64,000 nucleotides of DNA from NCBI GenBank assembly GCA_000165345.1, contig CM000435.1, forward strand, positions 1,024,001-1,088,000, read 5' to 3'. Numbering within the stretch: the first letter of the stretch is position 1; each line of letters starts with the position of its first letter. Below are positions 5,488-60,055 of the stretch, piece after piece. Below the pieces are notes generated by a model that was given only the letters and a program-made list of their open reading frames with translations, was not told the DNA's origin and ran no database searches. A program made the position numbers and the translations under genes.

Positions 5488-5496
5488 TGGCGCCAA
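5488..5496. promoter_or_regulatory. E2F-like TGGCGCCAA motif in the divergent promoter between the ABC gene and the 1891-aa gene
   Basis: The string gtggcgccaatcc was read at about 5488. A GGCGCC-core palindrome of this kind recurs in most promoters in this window. Confidence 0.4.
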
Positions 5497-5884
5497 TCCT
5501 GTTCCTCATACCATTAAATATAGTTGTTATTTTCTTGGATTAAGAGTTTTTTTTGCCTAACACAAGTTCAAGTTAGCAGATATCTTTTTCTAAAACGATT
5601 TATGTTATCGTTAGAAAGCTCTGAGACTTTTTCCTAGCTCTTTCTCTCTTTAAAAAACCTCTTCCATAAAGATTTATTTGAATCCATACGTGTGCCCGCC
5701 AGATGACCCGCCTTTATGCATCCCCCCACTTTAGCCATGCACTTTGAATCATGTCATCTGAATCTTTTTACATATTTAAAGTGTGTGAAGACTAATAAGA
5801 TTTTGCGTGAGACAACAAACTGACTGGGGATTTGGTAGAATGAGTTGTTGTCTCTTGAGACTATCGCTTCAAAATTGAAAAAGA

Positions 5885-8800: not shown

Positions 8801-11560
8801 TATATTTACAATGGCTTGATTCTAGATTTTAAAATCCTTTACAAAGTATACCAGAAATCTTTTATGGATTCAGGATTTCAATCTTTAGCGTATTTACCAA
8901 ACATATATCCCAAATTTCTCAATTTTTCTCTATTGAAATCAAGTTTATTTGATTATAACTTCCACAGATTTGAAACTATATGTTCCTTAAATAAATTAGA
9001 AACCGAATTATATTGGAACCAATATTTTACAGTTGTTGAGAACATTTCCAAAGATTTAATTAAACAATTACATTCTGCAAATGTTATTCTTCCAGGATCA
9101 GCTGATCGTACTAGTAGTACTTACAATATATCCCCCTTAAAAACCAGATCTCGTACTATTTGTGAATTTATTGCCAGAATTCTGAATCCAAACTTTTACA
9201 AGAGTTTTGATGTTAACACTTCTGACTTTTTCAAGGGTCAAATATCAAATTCTGAATATAATAAAGGACTTGTCTGGTATGATTTAAATCAAGTCAACAG
9301 TGGATCTGCACAGCATACGCCTAAACAAATTGATAAGAATGTTATGCGTTCACTTTATACCATCTATTTTGTTCAATCTTGTATTCACTCACTGATGAAA
9401 TACTTTTCTGGTATCCATTTTTTGCATGCAGCTTTATTATGTAGAAAAACAAGAGAATGGAGAGGCTGTGATGAGACTCAGTTTATTGGATATAACTATA
9501 TTGAACATTTGGAGGTTGGTGATCCAATTGAAGAAATTTACTTGAATAGACTATTAAAGGGAGTATTTGTTGATATGGTGACTTTTGAGTTGCAAGAAAA
9601 ATCAACTTCGTTATTCTGGTCAAGCAAGCTTTATGATATGCCAACTGACAGACTTCCAATTTCTTATATGAGATTTTGTCCAGTTTCTATCAGAATACAT
9701 GATTATCTTCAATCTGGGAGGTTCAACAACTTTGTGGATTCTTGTGTTTATGCTTTGGAAACTAGTAATGTTTTTCGTGTTGAAATTAATGGGGACATGT
9801 TTACCATAAAACGAAGTGTTGCTGAAAAGCTTTGTTCAAGTACATTTTGGGGACAAGATTGTAATCACCCTACAATCAAGAGTTCTGCAAAATTTCTTTA
9901 TGAACGTTTAATTCAAGCCCTTAAACTCCCTTCTCCAGTTATTCCAAGCTCAATTATGTGTAATATTGCATATGAAATGGCCTTCAGTAGGAATCCTGTT
10001 AATATCTGCTTTAATCCTAATACTTTCGTGGATACTAGGCCTAAAGCTGGAACAAACCCCTATTCTGAAGACTATAAGCTAAATCACAAAACCAATGATG
10101 AAAAACCCAGACTTAGAACTAAGAAATGGGACACTCCAGAAATGAATTTTGAAAATGCTATTCCTCTCCGCGAAGACCCTATGGGAATGCTTGGGCACAT
10201 TGCAAAAACTTATTCTTTAAGCGAAGTAAATTTTTCTGAGCTTAGAGATGCATGCGAGCAGGCACCAGTTTCCATTAGAGACTGCTCCAAAGTACCTTCT
10301 TTTGTAAAAGAGTATCCAAAAATTGTGAAAAACCCAGAAATCTTAAAGAAAATCAATGAGGAGACCATGAGGTTATTTTACCCTTTAGTCAAAAAAGATA
10401 ACCCAAGGAGTTTTGAAGAATTTCCAATCAGAATTGCCACCTTTGTGGAGCTTTGCAATCTTTCTGTATCAACTTACAATATCAGCCCAGAGCTTTTCAA
10501 CACTGCTTGTGTTTCTTCTTTTGGATGGAATAAACATTTTAAATCCAACCAGGAAATTTGGAAAGGTACAGATTGGCAAACTTCTATACTTTATTGTAGT
10601 TCCACATCCAAATGGAAAAGCTGCTCAAAATGGTCAAACAAGAATAAATTTGAGCTCGAAAATGATCGAGTATTTGAATTATCTTCTTCATATGCTAGTT
10701 CAAGTCCCCTTCAAAAAGCTTCTATTGACTTTATGGCTGCTTTCTTCTCTTCCACTATTTCTCTCTTCCTTTCTGGTGCAAACACTCAAAATATCTCAGA
10801 AGACCCTAAAGACCTTGAAATGATTACAAAATTGAGAGAGAATTATGATATGTTTTGTCCTGCAGCAACTGAGCTTCTTGTAAGTCATAAACTTATTGAT
10901 CAATCGAAATTAAAACCCTCAATTATTGAATTTATGAGGTCTGAGGAAATTTCTTACACTCAAGTAAGGAGAAGAAAGCCAAATAACGGAATTCCATATT
11001 TGTTTTTCAACGCCGATTGCCCTGAAATCCTTACAAATCATATCTTAAACATTGTAAACAGTGATGAGAACTCTGTTAAATCAAATCCTGATGTTCCCTT
11101 ACAATGGTCTAGAAAAGAATTTATCCTCGAATTTGCAGTTAGAGTCTGCAAAAAGCATTTCTCTTGGAAAGACTGCAATTATGACAAAGATATTTTGAAT
11201 AAAAATAATCCACTGGAAATTAACCACTTTGAATATGTTGCCTCTTCAATGTATAGGGAATTCTTGATTAGCTATATTGAAGATAAAGGGTCAGTTCCCA
11301 AGAAAATTGGTAATCATAAAAATGATAACTTTTATGTTTTTTGTAAGCTCTCAATTAACGTAATTTCCGAGCATCCCAGAATAATCCACAGCAACCAAGT
11401 TAGGTCATTAATTGAAAATCTCCTTCCAAAAAAATTCAAAAAATATTCCCAAAATATCGCCAATGTCTTCTTTAGTTCATTCGAAATCTTCCATAAAGGT
11501 GTCAAATATACTAAAAGTATCAAACCTCCAAAAGAAATCACAAAATTCTCATTTTCTTAA
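5885..11560 (+). CDS. Large hypothetical protein of 1891 aa with no domain I recognise. It is probably a lineage-specific protein.
   Basis: One uninterrupted ORF with a real ATG at 5885. It is a 5.7-kb ORF, far longer than chance allows in AT-rich DNA. Only short spurious antisense ORFs lie inside it. Confidence 0.7.
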   Translation: MTFFSIKVLNHIMLWFGLIIFWAITQIYGKSPVEHGKLMRNCPPEFTYSELRRLTSEGSLVEAQNFLDSLRSTEINVLYGMIEVRFDTDVRKLQIELPNLELADIKVSSKIREFISYEYVFDCKDIKESTRFLFWIIRHFDLNYLSPTIAFSITKYVLGEASKIFGKEHFIPVTPVTSINLSEVIAQNSKDDFPSRKQINEAIRKFTSTGRFPEYKGVIDLPDITSITPASIEDKVLRSRILILQRGGYAPKNKDRSQIQTVKYIMRTSRYYLNIYLSAEMSYRLWSIVYFIMTGIRISEYKYKMFPFIMKKSQSDTWPHESDVLEAISGTLTKFGIKHKPLSIHSSWYKKLKQEGYVLSVPQNIKTSRWFCRFFQHYLQIMINPYLQFNIWKTTLENLLEPHIRQVNVSGDKCFIKEDPKFPWPNCSQVPINSPEYDVLKHDKAVDNLTHEFARIIHNFNPGYPFHDLCELTRQLIETGSFRRKVRQPITRVKHEIAIRKLERKTYVRNLVRSYNYAKKYEPFIQPSDEMLFFFKDYIENDVPLNDKIADKIAREKFMDEDLEDVVKTRNFVIDCAKTYSSITARKSWNDLEIREIPAKGKKAISTACSNLFYSRPKCKFESIPPFHPAREHSDILTGEFSLRIFSYFRSIGVYNTIPDDFCPDAINVMSKIFRIEPKNHEQLKRDYAKNSKIHERDRFIRNALLKFKTLDNTDVQRSRARKLSEMMEQIVKSKLQDKLKPKTFDYIFGRIVNRYSEFVSKADGNYWEIDELKDMVRLGKRFVYYNSFKQFPKNKFKHVCDKLLTNIVLKIHGSEAIIERIRNSDPSLKLSDQRISRDITKNLCFSLGSWQISLRKRIKNKLEFLWLKMNNHKQEYKLIDSNLIPIPKHASQKYYIQVADANIINFYNSLGTNLKHQFPHLDIKLPNTIPIEPEVMRLRKLGYDCPPPKSAKSDGIPTAEECIRYIYRYGLYIYNGLILDFKILYKVYQKSFMDSGFQSLAYLPNIYPKFLNFSLLKSSLFDYNFHRFETICSLNKLETELYWNQYFTVVENISKDLIKQLHSANVILPGSADRTSSTYNISPLKTRSRTICEFIARILNPNFYKSFDVNTSDFFKGQISNSEYNKGLVWYDLNQVNSGSAQHTPKQIDKNVMRSLYTIYFVQSCIHSLMKYFSGIHFLHAALLCRKTREWRGCDETQFIGYNYIEHLEVGDPIEEIYLNRLLKGVFVDMVTFELQEKSTSLFWSSKLYDMPTDRLPISYMRFCPVSIRIHDYLQSGRFNNFVDSCVYALETSNVFRVEINGDMFTIKRSVAEKLCSSTFWGQDCNHPTIKSSAKFLYERLIQALKLPSPVIPSSIMCNIAYEMAFSRNPVNICFNPNTFVDTRPKAGTNPYSEDYKLNHKTNDEKPRLRTKKWDTPEMNFENAIPLREDPMGMLGHIAKTYSLSEVNFSELRDACEQAPVSIRDCSKVPSFVKEYPKIVKNPEILKKINEETMRLFYPLVKKDNPRSFEEFPIRIATFVELCNLSVSTYNISPELFNTACVSSFGWNKHFKSNQEIWKGTDWQTSILYCSSTSKWKSCSKWSNKNKFELENDRVFELSSSYASSSPLQKASIDFMAAFFSSTISLFLSGANTQNISEDPKDLEMITKLRENYDMFCPAATELLVSHKLIDQSKLKPSIIEFMRSEEISYTQVRRRKPNNGIPYLFFNADCPEILTNHILNIVNSDENSVKSNPDVPLQWSRKEFILEFAVRVCKKHFSWKDCNYDKDILNKNNPLEINHFEYVASSMYREFLISYIEDKGSVPKKIGNHKNDNFYVFCKLSINVISEHPRIIHSNQVRSLIENLLPKKFKKYSQNIANVFFSSFEIFHKGVKYTKSIKPPKEITKFSFS

Positions 11561-23415: not shown

Positions 23416-23798
23416 TTCTCTCCTATGAAGAAGCTCATAGAGAACAAAGGAACCTGTTAAAGCTTAATAAAAGTCTATCTTTAGCTATAAAAGTTACAAG
23501 AGAATCGGAACTAGACGAAGTAAAATTCCAGTACATGCGTTCCAACCCGTTTACGAGCATGGATGATTTTAGATTCAATAGTGCGCTTTTGAAAGTAAAA
23601 CCTTTTAAACATCATTTTCTAAATGAGAAGGAAGTTAATAAGGATTTCAAGACACATTTAAATAACAATTACAAGGTTAATTGTCTTTTTGATCCAGTTA
23701 TTAAACAATTTTGAGCAAGTTATGTAAATGACTTTAGGCGGGCACTTTGAAATATAAAATTTCCATCTGTGTAGAATATCAATAGGAATAAAGGAAAT

Positions 23799-24591: not shown

Positions 24592-24599
24592 TTCCCGCC
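24592..24599. promoter_or_regulatory. E2F-like TTCCCGCC motif upstream of the LSm5 gene
   Basis: The string gagttcccgcctaatt was read in the 205-nt intergenic region. Confidence 0.35.
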
Positions 24600-25072: not shown

Positions 25073-26281
25073 TTATAAGTTTTTGTTATTTTCTAAAAGG
25101 TGGGGTCTGAGTAAGGCTAATGTAAGTCCGATCGCTTCTTCTGTTCTTATGGTTCTGGATCTTTGCTCTGGACATATATTAATGTACATGTCAAATAAAG
25201 AGGAAGGATTTTTGACCTTGTCTAGAGAGCATTGAGGATCGCTAAGAACATCTTCAAGGCCTCCAAGGCCACCAAACACTATAAGTATGTGTTTAAAACT
25301 TTGTGATTTCGAGTCTTTGCCTTTAGTAGAGAGTTTAAAGTTGTTGTCAACAGGTTCACCTCTCTCAGAAGTTCCTATCTTCAAATCGTACCCTTCTTCG
25401 TATTCTGAGTCATTGAAAACGCTCTTTAATGAGTTTGCTGGTCGAACTTTGTATCCCCAATATATTCCTTTTTTTCTATAAGGAGTTGAGTCATCAACCA
25501 GCTTACCAGTAAAATAGGATTTAATTTCGGAATACCTTCCAAACTTATTAAAGTCAGAACAGAGTTTTTTATGAAGACTTTCTGACTCTTTTGACATTTT
25601 GATAGTGATTCTGGTGTTATTTTCAAGTTTAGTTTCAATCCAAGCTTCAACAGGAAGTCCACAATTAACCCAACTTCCCTTATTTTTATGTTCCGGCGAA
25701 ATAGTTCCTTTAAAGAGCTTTGGGCCTGGAACTATTACTCCCTGTCTGTAAGGAAGCCATTCAGAAATTCTCATATGGTGAGGAGCGTCAATTGGATTCT
25801 GTAAACCTGCAAACTTAAAATCGTTATCAAACTTAAAAAGGGTCTTTCTGAGGTATTGAGGGGTCTCCAGATACTTTAAATTCTTCACAAAAAACTCCAT
25901 CCATTTTGAACAAGCAAACTCTACCCATTCCTTTGAGGACCTATTCTCATTATCTGTTACATCTTTACATTTATCCTCGTAAATAATGATTTCGTCCACA
26001 CCAAATACAGAAATTATCCTGGCAATTTGGCCAACTAAGTAGGCTCTCAGCTCAAAAGATTGGGCATTTCCAGCAATAGATGCTGGAATTGCAACGCTTA
26101 ATGTAGCTTTTGATGGACTTCCTGCAAATGGTATCTTTGAAAGGATATCATCATTTCCTTCCGAACTAGATTGAAGACTAGCCTGGGATTCGTTTTGTCT
26201 CCTACTCCCGGATCTTTCCCTTGAGCTTGGACTATTCTTAGACTGCCCTTGTCTATTTTTAATAGTCTTTTTAGCGTCCAT
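25073..26281 (-). CDS. SPOUT-class methyltransferase, a homolog of the C9orf114/SPOUT1 (DUF171) family
   Basis: The stretch LSVAIPASIAGNAQSFELRAYLVGQIARIISVFGVDEIIIYED matches the DUF171 N-terminal block. The C-terminal stretch HILIVFGGLGGLEDV....RTEEAIGLTLALLRP is typical of the SPOUT knot region. A real ATG is present. Confidence 0.6.
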   Translation of the reverse strand: MDAKKTIKNRQGQSKNSPSSRERSGSRRQNESQASLQSSSEGNDDILSKIPFAGSPSKATLSVAIPASIAGNAQSFELRAYLVGQIARIISVFGVDEIIIYEDKCKDVTDNENRSSKEWVEFACSKWMEFFVKNLKYLETPQYLRKTLFKFDNDFKFAGLQNPIDAPHHMRISEWLPYRQGVIVPGPKLFKGTISPEHKNKGSWVNCGLPVEAWIETKLENNTRITIKMSKESESLHKKLCSDFNKFGRYSEIKSYFTGKLVDDSTPYRKKGIYWGYKVRPANSLKSVFNDSEYEEGYDLKIGTSERGEPVDNNFKLSTKGKDSKSQSFKHILIVFGGLGGLEDVLSDPQCSLDKVKNPSSLFDMYINICPEQRSRTIRTEEAIGLTLALLRPHLLENNKNL

Positions 26282-26322
26282 CTTTAATTTGTTTAAAGAT
26301 TTCTAAATGTCAATAACAGATA

Positions 26323-26338
26323 TTGGCGCCGGCGCCAA
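26323..26338. promoter_or_regulatory. Perfect 16-bp palindrome TTGGCGCCGGCGCCAA. It comprises two overlapping E2F-like sites and sits in the 99-bp divergent promoter between SPOUT1 and DDX41.
   Basis: The palindrome was read directly at 26323..26338. It is centred in the inter-ATG spacer. Confidence 0.5.
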
Positions 26339-26380
26339 CTCTTCCAAATATGGGGATTTAATAAGTGGGTATTTAGTGCA

Positions 26381-28266: not shown

Positions 28267-29334
28267 CTATGCGGAATCACTATTAATTAGCCATATAAGA
28301 ACTTTTGAACATTCGTCCATGCATCTAACAACACGTTCTGCATTAACTTCTGGGCATGCTTTTGAAATCCAAGATTGATTTGATCCAGAAATTTCTTCAT
28401 ATGCAAATGACATAGATAGAAAGATTCCAGCATACCATACAGAACATAAGGAGACTTCTAACGCATTATATTGCATACATACATTTGGGAGTCTATAGAA
28501 ATCTTGACTTATAGTTGAAGCAAGGAGTCTAAACATTTTTAAAGATTCAAATTCCTTTCCTTCTTCCTCTCCTTCTTCACCTTCCTCAACATATTCATTG
28601 AGTTTTGGAGAATAAAGTAGGATTCTTGTAAATCTTTCGATATGTGAAAATGGTAGTTCAATAGGAACTAGGTCAAAATTTATTGCTCTAAGTAGTGCAA
28701 ATTCATAGGTTTTAATCTGCTCCATATAATGAGTGTATTCTTTTCCTGAATCCTTATATATCCAGAAACTTGAAGAAAGCTCAAGAGGTATTGGCGCACT
28801 GGATACTTGGGAAAGCGAATTAGCTTTAATAATTCTATATAGAAACCTGGATAATTCAGAAAGTTTTCTAGAACTTCGAGTTGGCTCGATATCTTCTCTA
28901 ACCTTCCAAGATAAGAGAACAGCTGCAGCCGCAATAAATTTACGATCGGTTTCAAGAATATCAAACTTTGACCAAAACTTATATATGTAATGACAGGATG
29001 TCAGAGTAGTTCCTGGTGACAGGTGTAGATTTGTACAGAGAACTGTAGCTAGCTTGCTAGTTCCCAGTAGCAGTTCTCTATATCCACTACTATTTCTAGC
29101 CAGCTGCCACAGCTCTGGCTGTGATGCTGACTTTACGTTCATTTTGACAAATTTTACTAGAATTAATATTATCAAATGTTTGGCGCCACAGGTTTCAAGT
29201 GTCTCTAAAATTCCTAAAGTTGAAATTCTGAGGGTGGTAGGTTGAAAGCGTAATAGTAGGATTGGGAGTTCAGTATAGAAAGGAGAAAACTTGTCATTAC
29301 ACTTTTTCCTTTCATTTTGTAGGAATATTTTCAT
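28267..29334 (-). CDS. Cyclin-fold protein of the transcriptional cyclin C/H/K/L/T-like class
   Basis: The stretch CHYIYKFWSKFDILETDRKFIAAAAVLLSWKVRE resembles the first cyclin box, in which xAAACLFLAxKVEE is the usual form. The stretch YEFALLRAINFDLVPIELPFSHIERF resembles the cyclin ME.xILxxLxFxL motif. A Glu/Gly-rich acidic insert is present. Confidence 0.5.
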   Translation of the reverse strand: MKIFLQNERKKCNDKFSPFYTELPILLLRFQPTTLRISTLGILETLETCGAKHLIILILVKFVKMNVKSASQPELWQLARNSSGYRELLLGTSKLATVLCTNLHLSPGTTLTSCHYIYKFWSKFDILETDRKFIAAAAVLLSWKVREDIEPTRSSRKLSELSRFLYRIIKANSLSQVSSAPIPLELSSSFWIYKDSGKEYTHYMEQIKTYEFALLRAINFDLVPIELPFSHIERFTRILLYSPKLNEYVEEGEEGEEEGKEFESLKMFRLLASTISQDFYRLPNVCMQYNALEVSLCSVWYAGIFLSMSFAYEEISGSNQSWISKACPEVNAERVVRCMDECSKVLIWLINSDSA

Positions 29335-32963: not shown

Positions 32964-32975
32964 TTTCCCGCCAAA
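32964..32975. promoter_or_regulatory. Canonical E2F site TTTCCCGCCAAA in the divergent promoter between prefoldin-2 and the PTC7-like phosphatase
   Basis: The string aagtttcccgccaaatcat was read directly. Confidence 0.5.
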
Positions 32976-34556: not shown

Positions 34557-34568
34557 TTTTGGCGCCAA
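34557..34568. promoter_or_regulatory. E2F-like TTTTGGCGCCAA motif in the POP7/mucin divergent promoter
   Basis: The string gggttttggcgccaaccact was read directly. A second, weaker site TTTTGGCGG lies at about 35135..35143. Confidence 0.45.
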
Positions 34569-37542: not shown

Positions 37543-37551
37543 TTTGGCGGG
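37543..37551. promoter_or_regulatory. E2F-like TTTGGCGGG motif upstream of the gene at 37610
   Basis: The string gagatttggcgggctcaacggg was read about 60 nt upstream of the ATG. Confidence 0.35.
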
Positions 37552-38185: not shown

Positions 38186-39352
38186 CTACCTAATAAACTT
38201 GCTGGGTTTTGGGACAACTAAACCCATTTTTTGCAATTGACGATACCAATTAGTCATCATTCCGCTACACCATTGTTTAAGTTCTCTATTAATTGAATTA
38301 CTCACAACTCGGTTGATTTTATTGCTAAACATCATTCCAGATACAGTTAAATAATGTAGTTTGAAGGCCTTGTGATAGTTGTTTGTACACTCAGTAACAG
38401 TTTTTGATAGTTTCATCCCAAGTGGAGGGATACGTTTAATAATCCTAACATTGTCAAGTTCTGGGCTATAGGATGTTAAGAAAAACCTCCATTGCATCCT
38501 ATTTAGATCGTAGTCAGATGGGTGTTGAGGTTGGATTGGCAAATAGCCTTTTGGGGGAATTGCTTGTATGGGGGAATTTTGTGAAAATGTAGGTGAAGCC
38601 AGCTCCAACTCTGGAACAGTGGTCTTAAAGGTATCCCTGAAAATACCCTTAATTCCTTTTCTGCCTGCAATTGGAGGTGTATTCTGTTCTTCGAAGTATC
38701 TTGCAATGTCTGCTTCATCAGAATCTCCAGGAACTGTAGTTGAAGTTTGATATACTTTTTGAATTCTGCTAGGGATAGTTTTTCTTTCAATTCTAGTTTG
38801 TTGCAAAGCTGGATATCCTCCTGCTCTAGTATTGTACTCCCTGTGGCTTTTAGTTGAGATTGAGGGCATTTCTTGAAGCTGTAAAGGTGAAGCTTCATCG
38901 CTTTGACTCTCCTCGTCCCAAGTAAATTGTTTTCCTTGTTGTTGAGTAATAGATGGCTGAACTAATTCAAAACTATCTTCTGAGAACATTTCTTGATCTA
39001 ATTCTTCAAATGAAGGAGACATAATTCTTTCCCTATACATTTGTGGAACTTTTCTAGGTTTTCTGGACAACTGTGACCTCATTTGTTTCACCATTTGAGG
39101 AGGTACTCTCGACTCACTAACTGGAATCCACCCTGTCCACCTTCCATTTATTCTTCTTGAACAAAGCCATCCGATGGAACCATCTGAATATAGTTCCCCC
39201 CTGAACCTCTCCGGAAGGGGTCTGGTTGGGATTTTCTTCCTTGAAACATAGACTGTTCTATAATTAGGACTTCCTAAATGAATAGCATTCGCACACAAAA
39301 TGTGTGTAACAATAAGTAATAAGCATCCTAGTCCAACTAGAACCTTCATCAT
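38186..39352 (-). CDS. Hypothetical secreted protein of about 389 aa, Pro/Gln/Ser-rich, with an N-terminal signal peptide
   Basis: The tracked ORF 38186..39448 starts with a TTG. The first ATG, at codon 33, gives MMKVLVGLGCLLLIVTHILCANA, a classic signal peptide. The 32-codon extension overlaps a TGGCGCCAAA plus TGCATGCA promoter element at about 39420..39444. This supports the later start. Confidence 0.55.
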   Translation of the reverse strand: MMKVLVGLGCLLLIVTHILCANAIHLGSPNYRTVYVSRKKIPTRPLPERFRGELYSDGSIGWLCSRRINGRWTGWIPVSESRVPPQMVKQMRSQLSRKPRKVPQMYRERIMSPSFEELDQEMFSEDSFELVQPSITQQQGKQFTWDEESQSDEASPLQLQEMPSISTKSHREYNTRAGGYPALQQTRIERKTIPSRIQKVYQTSTTVPGDSDEADIARYFEEQNTPPIAGRKGIKGIFRDTFKTTVPELELASPTFSQNSPIQAIPPKGYLPIQPQHPSDYDLNRMQWRFFLTSYSPELDNVRIIKRIPPLGMKLSKTVTECTNNYHKAFKLHYLTVSGMMFSNKINRVVSNSINRELKQWCSGMMTNWYRQLQKMGLVVPKPSKFIR

Positions 39353-39481
39353 TGAAAGAATCTCATTTATTCCACTCTGCTTTTTTACTGAACGAGCAAC
39401 ATTGGCATTTTTAGATCGTAATGGCGCCAAAGCATGACATGCATGCAAATTTATTGTGGGGCGGGAGAAAGAGTCTGGAAA

Positions 39482-42392: not shown

Positions 42393-42403
42393 TTTTGGCG
42401 CGC
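42393..42403. promoter_or_regulatory. E2F-like TTTTGGCGCGC motif in the Ctf18-like/MARCH divergent promoter
   Basis: The string ctcttgttttggcgcgcatatg was read directly. Confidence 0.4.
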
Positions 42404-45768: not shown

Positions 45769-45781
45769 TTTTGGCGGGAAA
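45769..45781. promoter_or_regulatory. E2F-like TTTTGGCGGGAAA motif in the divergent promoter between the spliced gene and the gene at 46112
   Basis: The string gaacttttggcgggaaagtgcagc was read directly. Confidence 0.45.
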
Positions 45782-47671: not shown

Positions 47672-47680
47672 TTTCCCGCC
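47672..47680. promoter_or_regulatory. E2F site TTTCCCGCC about 80 nt upstream of RAD23
   Basis: The string gagttactttcccgccttgtc was read directly. Confidence 0.45.
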
Positions 47681-49037: not shown

Positions 49038-49047
49038 TTTTGGCGCC
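49038..49047. promoter_or_regulatory. E2F-like TTTTGGCGCC motif upstream of the GDI/REP gene
   Basis: The string catgtcattttggcgccattgac was read directly. Confidence 0.45.
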
Positions 49048-49117
49048 ATTGACATTCGGCACCAATTTGTATATTTAAACCCAATTTCTATTTGAAATAC
49101 TTGATACTTTAAAAATT

Positions 49118-51665: not shown

Positions 51666-52008
51666 TTCTGCTGTTTTTTATGTGTGAACTTGAAGCATGC
51701 AAATTCAGATTCTTAGGTTAGGTTAACCAGAACAACTTAACTGAGGAATTTGGTTGTTGTTTTTAAATGAGTAATTCTAATTTAAAATTTTACATACGTC
51801 CCTTTTTAAATACCGTTTAAAACAACTTTTTTTTCCTTGCAATCACCAAGAAAAATTAAAAAATTATACGGGAAAAATTCAACCATTTTTTTGACAAATA
51901 TTTTTAATTAATTTAGGCGCCACATGCCATTAATAATTAGTAAATATTTACATACCGGTATTTAGTCAGAATGATAATATTTTTTTTTTAATAAATAATT
52001 AAACAATG

Positions 52009-52016
52009 TTGGCGCC
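52009..52016. promoter_or_regulatory. E2F-like TTGGCGCC motif in the RPS4 promoter region. A second copy, TTAGGCGCCA, lies at about 51913..51922.
   Basis: The strings caatgttggcgccttagg and atttaggcgccacatgcc were read directly. Confidence 0.45.
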
Positions 52017-54256: not shown

Positions 54257-54266
54257 GGCGGGAAAA
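54257..54266. promoter_or_regulatory. E2F-like GGCGGGAAAA motif in the RPB6/GST divergent promoter
   Basis: The string catgaacaggcgggaaaatcag was read directly. TGCATGC-like elements, gttgcatgctaaaa and agtcatgcaaaaac, lie nearby. Confidence 0.35.
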
Positions 54267-55578: not shown

Positions 55579-57633
55579 TTAATCTCTTGAGTATTTGAAT
55601 TGATCAGGTCTACTATTTAAAATGATTTGATCTCGCTCACTTACAACCCATGCAACAACAACTGTAATGTCATCAAGCTTTCCTCCAGTACTAAACTGCC
55701 AAAGTTCATCGCTGACGCTACAATGTCTGTTAAAAGGGGTCTTTGCCTTTGGATCCAAAGATTTGATGTATGCTGCATTTGCTAGAGCCTTGGATATGTT
55801 ATGAGGGCTTGAATATAATTTGGGATCTTTTAGTAACCTAATTGCCTCATATGGGGAGATTGCTCCGCTACATATGCTACAAATTTCATAATCAAACAAA
55901 TTATCAAATAAACCATCGGTAGCAACTACAATTAAGTCACTTTGGGAAAGGGTAATCTCTTTGGTTATTGAATGAGATGGTAAATCCTGAGGAACATCCT
56001 CGCTATTTTTAACAAGATTAATAAAACAAGTCAATCCCTTTTCTTGTAACATTGGAAAATCTTCAGGAGTTGGAAGCCTTGATAACTGAAATGGACAATT
56101 AAAAGAATGTTGCTGAGCTGGACTTCTATAAACAATACCCATCCTAAAAGTTTCAGGAGTTCTTCTTAATATAATTATCCCAGAGTCTCCCAAATATGAA
56201 ATCTGAAGTTTGCTAGTCTTTGGGTCAAAACATGCAACAAAAGCTGTAGATGAGCCAAAAGACTGCGTATTCTTATATCCCTCCATCAACAAAAACTGAG
56301 AGTAAGAAAGAGCCTGAGAGTCACTGTTGAATTGTTTTCCTAAGTTAAACATTTCCTCTTTATCGTCTTTATCCAACTCATTCTGTGGCTCAGTCCTTTC
56401 TTCCATACTGTAACCTATATCAAACTTTAATTTTGCTCCTTTAGAACGATGCGTAAATCCACGAAATTCCGAGACCTCCCTACTTTCCATTGTCATTTTC
56501 TTTGTCGCATCTGGCTTAATGTTTGCATGCACCACATTTTTCTTTAAAATTGCCACGTCATTAGGCGGGGGGCGGGGTTGCATGCATTTTGTATTAAGAT
56601 AAGCTTCTCTCATTCCAGAAATGAGTTCAGAAGCGAATAATTTTGGGTTAACTCCAAAGTTGGCCCATTCTCCCACTCCATCGGCAATTCCGATTACATT
56701 TTCCTCATAAAAGTGTGCATCCTCTCCTCCGTAGTGAACTTTTGAAGGATGGGGGTGAGAGCAGCTCCCAATGGATAAATTCAAGACTGCTCCATCTTTT
56801 TTTGGTCGAATATATTCTGGAATTCTAAGGAAAATATCAATTCCTTTAAGGTAGCTAGTAACATTTGAAGGCCAAGCTTTATTAGAGTGTGTTGAAATCC
56901 TCCTAAGTCTGTCCTCTTTCAGAGCCATATTTAGCCTTTCCATACCATCGTCATTATAGGGTGGAAATGCAACAGTAGTACTTGTCATAACTCTGTATAT
57001 GGCGGGCCGTCCTGAAGTTGGAGTATTAGAAGAGGGAGAGTTTATGGTAGAGGATGCAGATGAAGATGCAGAGGTACTTTTTGAATAGTCATAAATATCT
57101 TTATTAACATTCCATTCGTATACTTCTCTTTGGGTAGTTGTTTTGTCTTGTCCTTCTACTTCTAACTCCAATTCTAAATCCAAAATTTCTCCCGAATAAA
57201 AGTTACTATTCTGACTGAGGTTTGAACGAGCAAACATTAGACCATCGCTAAAGCATCTACTCATGAAGGATTTCTGGTAAATATTGTCATTACGTTCTCT
57301 TTTTCCTTGGCTACTTTCTTCGACTTCTATTTCTGCCTCCCTACTACCTTCTGAGCCCTTTGACCAAGCCTCATTTGGGCTCTGATTGGACGTTGCATTC
57401 TGGGATGGAGAGAAATTACCTGAAATTGAACCAGCTGTTGACTGGGATGAATATCTTTTTGAATGGTAAAGCTTTTCAGGAAGCTCTTTTGAAAATATCC
57501 TCAATACATTCTTTGAATGGCTTACTATACTCTCTCCTCCCAAATGGCTATTCCTTGCTAAATCCTCCAAAAACCTCCGAAATATTACAGAGGGCTCTTG
57601 CTCTTCCTGTATTCTTTCATTTTCTTTATACAT
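55579..57633 (-). CDS. PTC7-type PP2C/PPM phosphatase with a long Ser-rich N-terminal extension of about 684 aa. It is the second PTC7-like gene in the window.
   Basis: The tracked ORF ends at 57657 with a GTG start. The first ATG, at 57633, gives MYKENERIQEE. The catalytic core follows: IGIADGVGEWANFGVNPKLFASELI, then IVVATDGLFDNLFD and a C-terminal GGKLDDITVVVAWVV. An E2F-like TTGGCGCC at 57688..57695 lies just upstream of the trimmed start. Confidence 0.65.
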   Translation of the reverse strand: MYKENERIQEEQEPSVIFRRFLEDLARNSHLGGESIVSHSKNVLRIFSKELPEKLYHSKRYSSQSTAGSISGNFSPSQNATSNQSPNEAWSKGSEGSREAEIEVEESSQGKRERNDNIYQKSFMSRCFSDGLMFARSNLSQNSNFYSGEILDLELELEVEGQDKTTTQREVYEWNVNKDIYDYSKSTSASSSASSTINSPSSNTPTSGRPAIYRVMTSTTVAFPPYNDDGMERLNMALKEDRLRRISTHSNKAWPSNVTSYLKGIDIFLRIPEYIRPKKDGAVLNLSIGSCSHPHPSKVHYGGEDAHFYEENVIGIADGVGEWANFGVNPKLFASELISGMREAYLNTKCMQPRPPPNDVAILKKNVVHANIKPDATKKMTMESREVSEFRGFTHRSKGAKLKFDIGYSMEERTEPQNELDKDDKEEMFNLGKQFNSDSQALSYSQFLLMEGYKNTQSFGSSTAFVACFDPKTSKLQISYLGDSGIIILRRTPETFRMGIVYRSPAQQHSFNCPFQLSRLPTPEDFPMLQEKGLTCFINLVKNSEDVPQDLPSHSITKEITLSQSDLIVVATDGLFDNLFDYEICSICSGAISPYEAIRLLKDPKLYSSPHNISKALANAAYIKSLDPKAKTPFNRHCSVSDELWQFSTGGKLDDITVVVAWVVSERDQIILNSRPDQFKYSRD

Positions 57634-57687: not shown

Positions 57688-57695
57688 TTGGCGCC
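57688..57695. promoter_or_regulatory. E2F-like TTGGCGCC motif upstream of the long PTC7-like gene
   Basis: The string tcgcctcttggcgcctaaatgc was read directly. Confidence 0.4.
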
Positions 57696-58041
57696 TAAAT
57701 GCTGGACATGCCGCTCACAGGTACCGAATCTAAAAATACGTTTGGGGGCCCCCAAAGCTGGTGTAGGAGAAAAATATCAAAAATTAATTAAATATCAAAA
57801 ATTACAAAGGAGACAAAAATATAAGATATTATTCAGGAAAAATTTCTTCAGGATTAGATTTATTAAGGTTTTATTTTCCTTTATTGATACTATTATGATT
57901 ACGGCTATTCCTTTAAATCTATCTACGTTCTCAGCAGATTCGACTATTCATCTTTAATACTTACCACGATTTCTCCTTTTTTTCCCATATTCCAGCTTCT
58001 TCCTCTTCTTAGTTTTCACCCAGCTCAATCTTTTTAACTGA

Positions 58042-60045: not shown

Positions 60046-60055
60046 GCCGCCAAAA
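60046..60055. promoter_or_regulatory. E2F-like motif GCCGCCAAAA (reverse complement TTTTGGCGGC) upstream of the amino-acid transporter gene
   Basis: The string gattatgccgccaaaaatgattg was read directly. Confidence 0.35.

Follow-up and report, generated by a model that had tools for sequence, protein, structure and literature searches.

The 64-kb stretch of DNA analysed here (the window) lies on chromosome 7 of Cryptosporidium parvum, at ~1,065,105-1,129,104 of CP141124.1 (GCA_035232765.1, a chromosome of 1.36 Mb), and its coordinates are converted to those of the chromosome by adding 1,065,104. The original prediction had assigned this DNA to Cryptosporidium, which is borne out by four of the six window proteins that we looked up—the SPOUT methylase, the abstrakt DEAD-box helicase, the Ctf18-like RFC paralogue and Rab GDI/REP—matching C. 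parvum Iowa II and CPATCC entries exactly. Our gene map follows the deposited CpBGF calls on CP141124.1, except that a short cyclin start was used instead of the annotated long one. On this map, 33 genes, a few of which have introns, lie within or touch the window, and they are separated by 10 divergent, 13 tandem and 10 convergent spacers. One of the divergent spacers harbours the feature from which this study started, a perfect 16-bp palindrome that is present exactly where it had been predicted.

25073-26281, minus strand: SPOUT methylase gene, left flank of the palindrome spacer
26323-26338: perfect 16-bp palindrome TTGGCGCCGGCGCCAA
26381-28093, plus strand: abstrakt DEAD-box helicase gene, right flank of the palindrome spacer

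This palindrome, one of only three of its length in the window, consists of two abutting GGCGCC cores with centres 6 bp apart. From its own centre, the two start codons are 49.5 and 50.5 bp away, so that it marks the middle of the 99-bp divergent spacer.

The GGCGCC core is part of a motif with a long history in this parasite. Its over-representation was first noticed in the non-coding DNA of chromosome 6 (Bankier et al. 2003), and 5'-TGGCGCCA-3' is the first-listed of the upstream motifs with the strongest over-representation in C. parvum. Two versions have been defined as E2F-like motif 3 (DTTGSCGCCH) and motif 4 (TTTGGCGGGAAV) (Oberstaller 2013, PMC3734150). The E2F-like motif is the most abundant upstream motif genome-wide, and 161 of 200 co-expression clusters are preceded by it (Oberstaller 2013 and 2014). 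It also precedes lncRNAs, two copies being present in 22.6% of cases. No motif is more prominent in the regulatory ATAC-seq peaks of sporozoites, and bidirectional promoters make up more than half of those peaks (Xiao et al. 2025 preprint, 10.1101/2025.01.17.633476). The original prediction, in naming an E2F/DP-like element as the dominant upstream motif of the genus, is supported by published work (Bankier 2003, Oberstaller 2013, Xiao 2025). Because the pattern was not to be tuned to the data, we adopted the published cores [C/G]GCGC[G/C] or GGCGGG (Oberstaller et al. 2013) as the definition of the motif. There are 28 matches to these cores in the 64-kb window, and the sites considered individually, besides the palindrome, are the following.

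307-318, unstranded: double site GGCGCCGGCGCG, abutting, ~460 bp upstream of the ABC-transporter ATG (minus-strand gene just left of the window)
5489-5494, unstranded: GGCGCC (gtGGCGCCaa), divergent spacer shared by the ABC gene (minus) and the 1891-aa gene (plus)
5695-5712, minus strand: two CCCGCC (5695-5700 and 5707-5712), 175-190 bp upstream of the 1891-aa gene
23737-23742, plus strand: GGCGGG, divergent spacer, ~60 bp upstream of the Snf7 ATG
24594-24599, minus strand: CCCGCC, tandem spacer, ~89 bp upstream of the LSM ATG
29182-29187, unstranded: tttGGCGCCa, 40 bp upstream of the corrected cyclin start at 29142, within the over-extended 355-aa ORF
32967-32972, minus strand: tttCCCGCCaaa, prefoldin/PP2C divergent spacer, ~87 bp upstream of the PP2C ATG
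34561-34566, unstranded: ttttGGCGCCaa, ~90 bp upstream of the Alba/Rpp20 gene (minus)
37546-37551, plus strand: tttGGCGGG, ~62 bp upstream of the 151-aa gene
39423-39465, unstranded: GGCGCCaaa (39423-39428) and GGCGGG (39460-39465), 129-bp tandem spacer upstream of the 388-aa gene (minus)
42397-42402, unstranded: ttttGGCGCGc, divergent spacer between Ctf18 and the 215-aa gene
45773-45778, plus strand: ttttGGCGGGaaa, divergent spacer between the 251-aa and 239-aa genes
47675-47680, minus strand: tttCCCGCC, ~80 bp before the RAD23 ATG, the stop codon of the preceding gene being 844 bp away
49042-49047, unstranded: ttttGGCGCCa, ~74 bp upstream of the Rab GDI/REP ATG
51916-52016, unstranded: two GGCGCC (51916-51921 and 52011-52016), divergent spacer between the 246-aa gene and RPS4
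54257-54262, plus strand: GGCGGGaaaa, ~131 bp upstream of the Rpb6 gene (minus)
57690-57695, unstranded: cttGGCGCCtaa, ~60 bp upstream of the 684-aa gene (minus)
60046-60051, unstranded: weak variant GCCGCCaaaaa, ~200 bp upstream of the amino-acid transporter gene, outside the published core

A GC core lies within ~4 nt of each of the 15 positions named beforehand, and 14 of these match the published core, the exception being the weaker GCCGCC at 60046. That list had omitted the sites at 307/313 (the second double site), 5695, 5707, 23737, 29182, 39460 and 51916. The window sites are instances of the published E2F-like motifs 3/4 (PMC3734150), with which they share the organism, the core, the flanks and the restriction to upstream regions, and there is no essential difference between the two.

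The first finding of this study is that these cores are far too frequent for chance and are concentrated in front of genes. GGCGCC alone is present in 11 copies, whereas 0.77 are expected from dinucleotide-preserving shuffles, none of 100 of which reached 11. Most of the 11 copies are preceded by TT and followed by A[A/C], in keeping with the E2F/DP consensus. Matches to the published cores are distributed among the three classes of DNA in the window as follows.

5' intergenic (divergent and tandem), 11.35 kb: 23 core matches, 2.0 per kb
Convergent 3' intergenic, 1.59 kb: 0 core matches
Genic (coding sequence and introns), 51 kb: 5 core matches, 0.10 per kb

The enrichment of 5' intergenic over coding DNA corresponds to an odds ratio of 20.7 (Fisher p = 3.5e-13), despite the spacers being more AT-rich than the genes. 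The match at 29182 was scored as intergenic because the shorter cyclin start was used, and the split becomes 22 vs 6 with the long annotation. Two of the five coding matches belong to GGCGGGGGGCGGG at 56564-56576, within the coding sequence of the 684-aa gene, which is probably a mere G-rich coding stretch. The proposed positional contrast between upstream and downstream spacers thus holds, with a density ~20-fold that of coding sequence in the former and no match in the latter. For the convergent spacers of the window alone, where 0 cores in 1.59 kb are to be set against 3.2 expected, the depletion is marginal (P = 0.04). It becomes solid when C. parvum and five other intestinal species are pooled, with 0 cores in 4.8 kb of convergent spacer vs 11.8 expected (P = 8e-6).

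Within 5' spacers, the motif is not quite as universal as had been claimed. At least one core is found in 10/10 divergent spacers, for which the claim that nearly every 5' region carries the motif is correct, but in only 7/13 tandem spacers (17/23 overall), and a strict core is missing from 6/23. The median distance from a core to the nearest ATG is 90 bp and the range 42-468 bp, in rough agreement with the predicted 50-250 nt. Seven of the nine matches in tandem spacers are in the half closer to the ATG of the downstream gene. For the asymmetric GGCGGG, a manual tally of orientation relative to the nearest gene gave seven in the CCCGCC sense, two in the GGCGGG sense and one ambiguous, numbers too small to establish a bias.

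The position of the motif is of practical help in picking start codons in such a compact genome, and the cyclin gene is an example. This gene (28267-29334, minus strand) is predicted to encode 355 aa in GCA_035232765.1 vs 291 aa in GCA_031892065.1. All six of its orthologues begin at M65 of the long ORF, the 64-residue extension having no counterpart, and the start was placed at 29142 because of this agreement. The N-terminal extension is therefore probably an annotation error, as judged from the orthologous sequences. From the corrected ATG the motif is 40 bp upstream, and the orthologous site is 45-78 bp upstream in five species. The use of the motif to support start corrections, as originally advocated, is thus sound for the cyclin, where orthologues agree. 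The number of ORFs said to swallow the motif was overstated, since extension to the furthest ATG/GTG/TTG engulfs it in two genes rather than several, namely the cyclin and the 388-aa gene at 39352. Their description as TTG/GTG-extended also needs amending, as one of these two extensions starts with ATG.

The second finding is that the enrichment is specific in sequence, which bears on whether these elements could be a by-product of base composition. When all hexamers in 5' spacers were ranked against a first-order Markov expectation, GCGCCA came first and GGCGCC second, followed by CATGCA and CCCGCC. Among the 36 strand-collapsed hexamers made of G and C only, enrichment is limited to GGCGCC (11 in 5' spacers, 0 convergent, 0 coding) and GGCGGG (10, 0 and 5, respectively). 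The isomers of the same composition CCGCGG, CCGGCC, CGGCCG and CGCGCG do not occur at all, and most of the remaining CpG-containing hexamers of 5' spacers overlap double or extended sites. Since the isomers are absent and only specific hexamers are enriched, the motif is not merely the signature of GC-rich promoters. Chance or composition as its source was rejected on the strength of the shuffles, the Markov ranking and this isomer control. A more elaborate form of the compositional argument would be that GC-rich islands exclude nucleosomes, or mark promoters, without any sequence-specific reader. It could appeal to the fact that site-bearing 5' spacers are slightly GC-richer than site-free ones; however, it has to contend with the restriction of the enrichment to particular hexamers and with the conservation of the exact core between species while the flanking spacer diverges, and we consider it very improbable.

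Two other hexamer families stand out in the same spacers. Second in enrichment is the family of CATGCA and GCATGC (20 vs 2.4 expected), which corresponds to the known AP2_1 motif TGCATGCA. Neither AP2_1 nor the G-box (G.GGGG), the ApiAP2 motifs that we compared, is matched by the GGCGCC or GGCGGG cores, and CATGCA is a separate element. CGGTAC/GTACCG is present nine times in the 5' spacers of the window vs 0.6 expected, often 15-70 bp from an E2F-like site, and is not one of the 25 published motifs. The examples are as follows.

112, 287, 5473, 11675, 32900, 35126, 44401 and 57721: CGGTAC/GTACCG, 5' intergenic

Other species, as sampled at seven loci, show little enrichment (0.28 per kb vs 0.12 per kb in coding sequence), so the signal is not clearly replicated and we treat it as unconfirmed.

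The third finding is that the motif and its location are conserved in the genus. Syntenic 21-kb blocks were fetched via the SPOUT methylase orthologues of C. ubiquitum, C. felis, C. canis, C. ryanae, C. bovis and C. muris, and gene order is kept throughout all six. Pooled over these blocks, the cores are distributed as follows.

5' intergenic, 17.6 kb: 44 core matches
Convergent intergenic, 4.2 kb: 0 core matches
Coding, 104 kb: 15 core matches

The location in 5' spacers is replicated in all five of the other intestinal species, and the motif is never found in their convergent spacers. Sites are retained in the SPOUT/helicase, cyclin, prefoldin/PP2C and LSM promoters in 5/5 of these species and in the Snf7 promoter in 4/5, where the orthologous CCCGCC/GGCGGG is seen in C. 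felis, C. canis, C. ryanae and C. bovis. As judged from these sequences, the cores at orthologous promoters are under purifying selection.

In the SPOUT/helicase spacer, the orthologous double site reads GGCGCCGGCGCC in C. felis and C. canis, and GGCGCCCGCGCC in C. ubiquitum, with a single G to C change that is still within [C/G]GCGC[G/C]. In C. ryanae and C. bovis, the orthologous spacer contains one copy only, GGCGCCAAA. A four-species alignment of this 90-99-bp spacer has 11/12 identical columns in the motif vs 24/91 elsewhere (p = 1.9e-5). The sole substitution in the motif, that of C. ubiquitum, falls on the degenerate first position of the consensus and leaves both cores valid while breaking the palindrome. 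Selection thus acts on the cores rather than on the palindrome, because C. ubiquitum breaks the latter yet keeps the former, and C. ryanae and C. bovis make do with one copy. The palindrome as the selected unit was rejected on these grounds. The same observations weigh against the idea that, instead of two E2F sites, the 16-bp palindrome represents an element of another kind, such as a cruciform, a signal for replication or recombination, or the target of a dimeric factor reading GCCGGC. Perfect palindromes of this length are rare in the window, as mentioned above, and the abutting arrangement is seen again at 307-318, both of which would suit such an element. The central GCCGGC is lost in C. 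ubiquitum together with the palindrome, the two cores in GGCGCCCGCGCC remaining valid E2F cores, and just one GGCGCCAAA is retained at the orthologous place in C. ryanae and C. bovis. We find a distinct element hardly credible in the face of these losses.

Several other short sequences in or near these spacers deserve mention. The 99-bp spacer has a third footprint, AGTGGG (CCCACT on the other strand) at ~26362-26368, ~13 bp upstream of the helicase ATG, and this block does not vary between C. parvum, C. ubiquitum, C. felis and C. canis. On the SPOUT side, TGACAT is found 10-15 bp from the E2F-like site (26306-26313 of the window, minus strand) in 7/7 species including C. muris, near 9965-9975 in the other-species loci (L010-L015). 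A longer form of it, TTGACATT, is common to C. parvum, C. ubiquitum, C. felis and C. canis. In the Rab GDI promoter, TTGACAT comes immediately after the GGCGCC (49049-49055), and the TGACAT element may be initiator-like. A second GC-rich perfect 16-bp palindrome, TTTGGGGGCCCCCAAA at 57741-57756, resembles a back-to-back pair of G-boxes (G.GGGG) and is ~110-120 bp upstream of the 684-aa gene and ~50 bp from the E2F-like site at 57690.

Which factor would read these elements is suggested by their resemblance to canonical E2F/DP sites of animals and plants (TTTSSCGC; PMC3734150), which likewise have a symmetric 6-bp CG core with a T-rich and an A-rich flank. The core [C/G]GCGC[G/C] is recognised symmetrically by the winged helices of E2F and DP (Zheng et al. 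1999, in the form in which that work is summarised in PMC3734150), and the variants TTTCCCGCC and TTTGGCGGG are common to C. parvum and Arabidopsis E2F sites. The genes for such factors, which the original prediction had proposed to look for, are annotated in the C. parvum genome according to the literature, as two E2F (cgd1_1560 and cgd6_1430) and two DP (cgd7_3650 and cgd8_1850); none of them is in the window, as determined from Pfam annotation of its genes. Our preferred reading, to which we give a probability of roughly 0.85, is that the elements are E2F/DP sites acting as a general promoter-proximal element, with occupancy predicted from sequence similarity. GGCGCC, GGCGCG and GGCGGG cores with T on one flank and A on the other would be E2F-like cis-elements for heterodimers of these winged-helix proteins, TTGGCGCCAA being the sequence that E2F/DP would bind. 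Their placement ~40-300 bp upstream of start codons would put them in the nucleosome-free part of very short spacers, from which they would activate transcription. Because the core is palindromic, a single site could serve both genes of a divergent pair, and the 16-bp palindrome would place a pair of adjoining copies exactly midway in a 99-bp bidirectional promoter. The two copies may not both be filled at once, since their centres are 6 bp apart and a heterodimer would cover ~12 bp.

A real promoter motif could also be read by another factor, such as an uncharacterised ApiAP2, Myb or zinc-finger protein, the likeness to E2F sites being coincidental. The role of E2F/DP is derived from sequence similarity, our literature search having found no report of direct binding to the motif in C. 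parvum, and a June 2025 review states that very few regulatory components have been experimentally confirmed. Most canonical E2F partners are reported absent in C. parvum, and the motif precedes most kinds of genes. We nevertheless regard another factor as improbable. The core and flanks fit the E2F/DP consensus ([A/T][C/G]GCGC[G/C][A/T] and TTTGGCGGGAA). Among the apicomplexans examined, Cryptosporidium is the only genus keeping E2F/DP and, according to the papers cited, it is there that the motif is over-represented. Finally, a study of AP2 proteins files the motif under known non-AP2 factors and not among AP2-bound motifs.

If the elements are E2F/DP sites, their use would differ from that in animals and plants. 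As with canonical E2F sites, the motif precedes replication and cell-cycle genes (RPA1, the Ctf18 RFC paralogue and the cyclin), and it is also found upstream of RAD23. Unlike canonical E2F sites, the putative sites of C. parvum are pervasive (17/23 5' spacers) and include those of ribosomal-protein, transporter and trafficking genes, since they are also upstream of the RPS4, Rpb6, Rab GDI, Snf7, LSM, PP2C and ABC transporter genes. The genes concerned in the window are therefore not limited to the cell cycle, replication and repair, and define no classical cell-cycle E2F regulon. The arrangement resembles the bidirectional promoters described by Xiao 2025, as 10/10 divergent spacers have a site, often a single one between two genes, while the sites in tandem spacers resemble the inter-UTR regions of polycistrons in that study.

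The motif was already well described (2003-2013, and by ATAC-seq in 2025), and what was noticed in the window is correct and ordinary, adding nothing fundamental to the biology of the motif. The additions made here—the cross-species footprint, the corrected cyclin start and the smaller number of full 6-bp cores in C. muris and C. andersoni—are minor. The published comparison covered C. hominis only, at 95% intergenic identity, and neither the abutting double site nor a comparison with distant species was found in published work on the motif; likewise, we found no paper on a deficit of 6-bp cores in gastric species. The conserved double site could be a convenient, well-defined test substrate.

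The gastric species differ in the length of their cores. There are no strict 6-bp cores in the whole 21-kb block of C. muris (L013), and two in a second block, that of C. andersoni (L017), vs about 8 and 10, respectively, in the syntenic blocks of C. parvum. The two strict cores of C. andersoni are orthologous to the C. parvum sites at 42397, where it has ttttGGCGCGaaa, and 47675, where an orthologous gttCCCGCC is found 75 bp upstream of RAD23. Together, the two species have two strict cores in 5.3 kb of 5' spacer vs 13 expected at the intestinal rate (P = 2e-4). To say that the motif is absent from C. muris would be too strong, given the 5-bp cores in orthologous 5' spacers and the two strict orthologous sites in C. 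andersoni. The deficit, seen in two ~21-kb blocks, hints at weaker sites or at a lineage-specific shift in E2F/DP specificity. Two points, both resting on these two ~21-kb syntenic blocks, are put forward as tentative and rather doubtful: the retention, in C. parvum, C. ubiquitum, C. felis and C. canis, of an abutting double site centred in a divergent spacer of ~90-100 bp with a further conserved block on either side, and the near-exclusive use of 5-bp cores in C. muris and C. andersoni where the intestinal species have the symmetric 6-bp core. The 5-bp cores with the usual flanks (TTTGCGCGAA, CTGGCGCTT and AAAGCGGGAA) in the gastric species number 17 in 5' spacers and 4 in coding sequence, with none in convergent spacers. 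A rough tally that takes each site once puts the density of cores of 5 bp or more in these species close to that in C. parvum.
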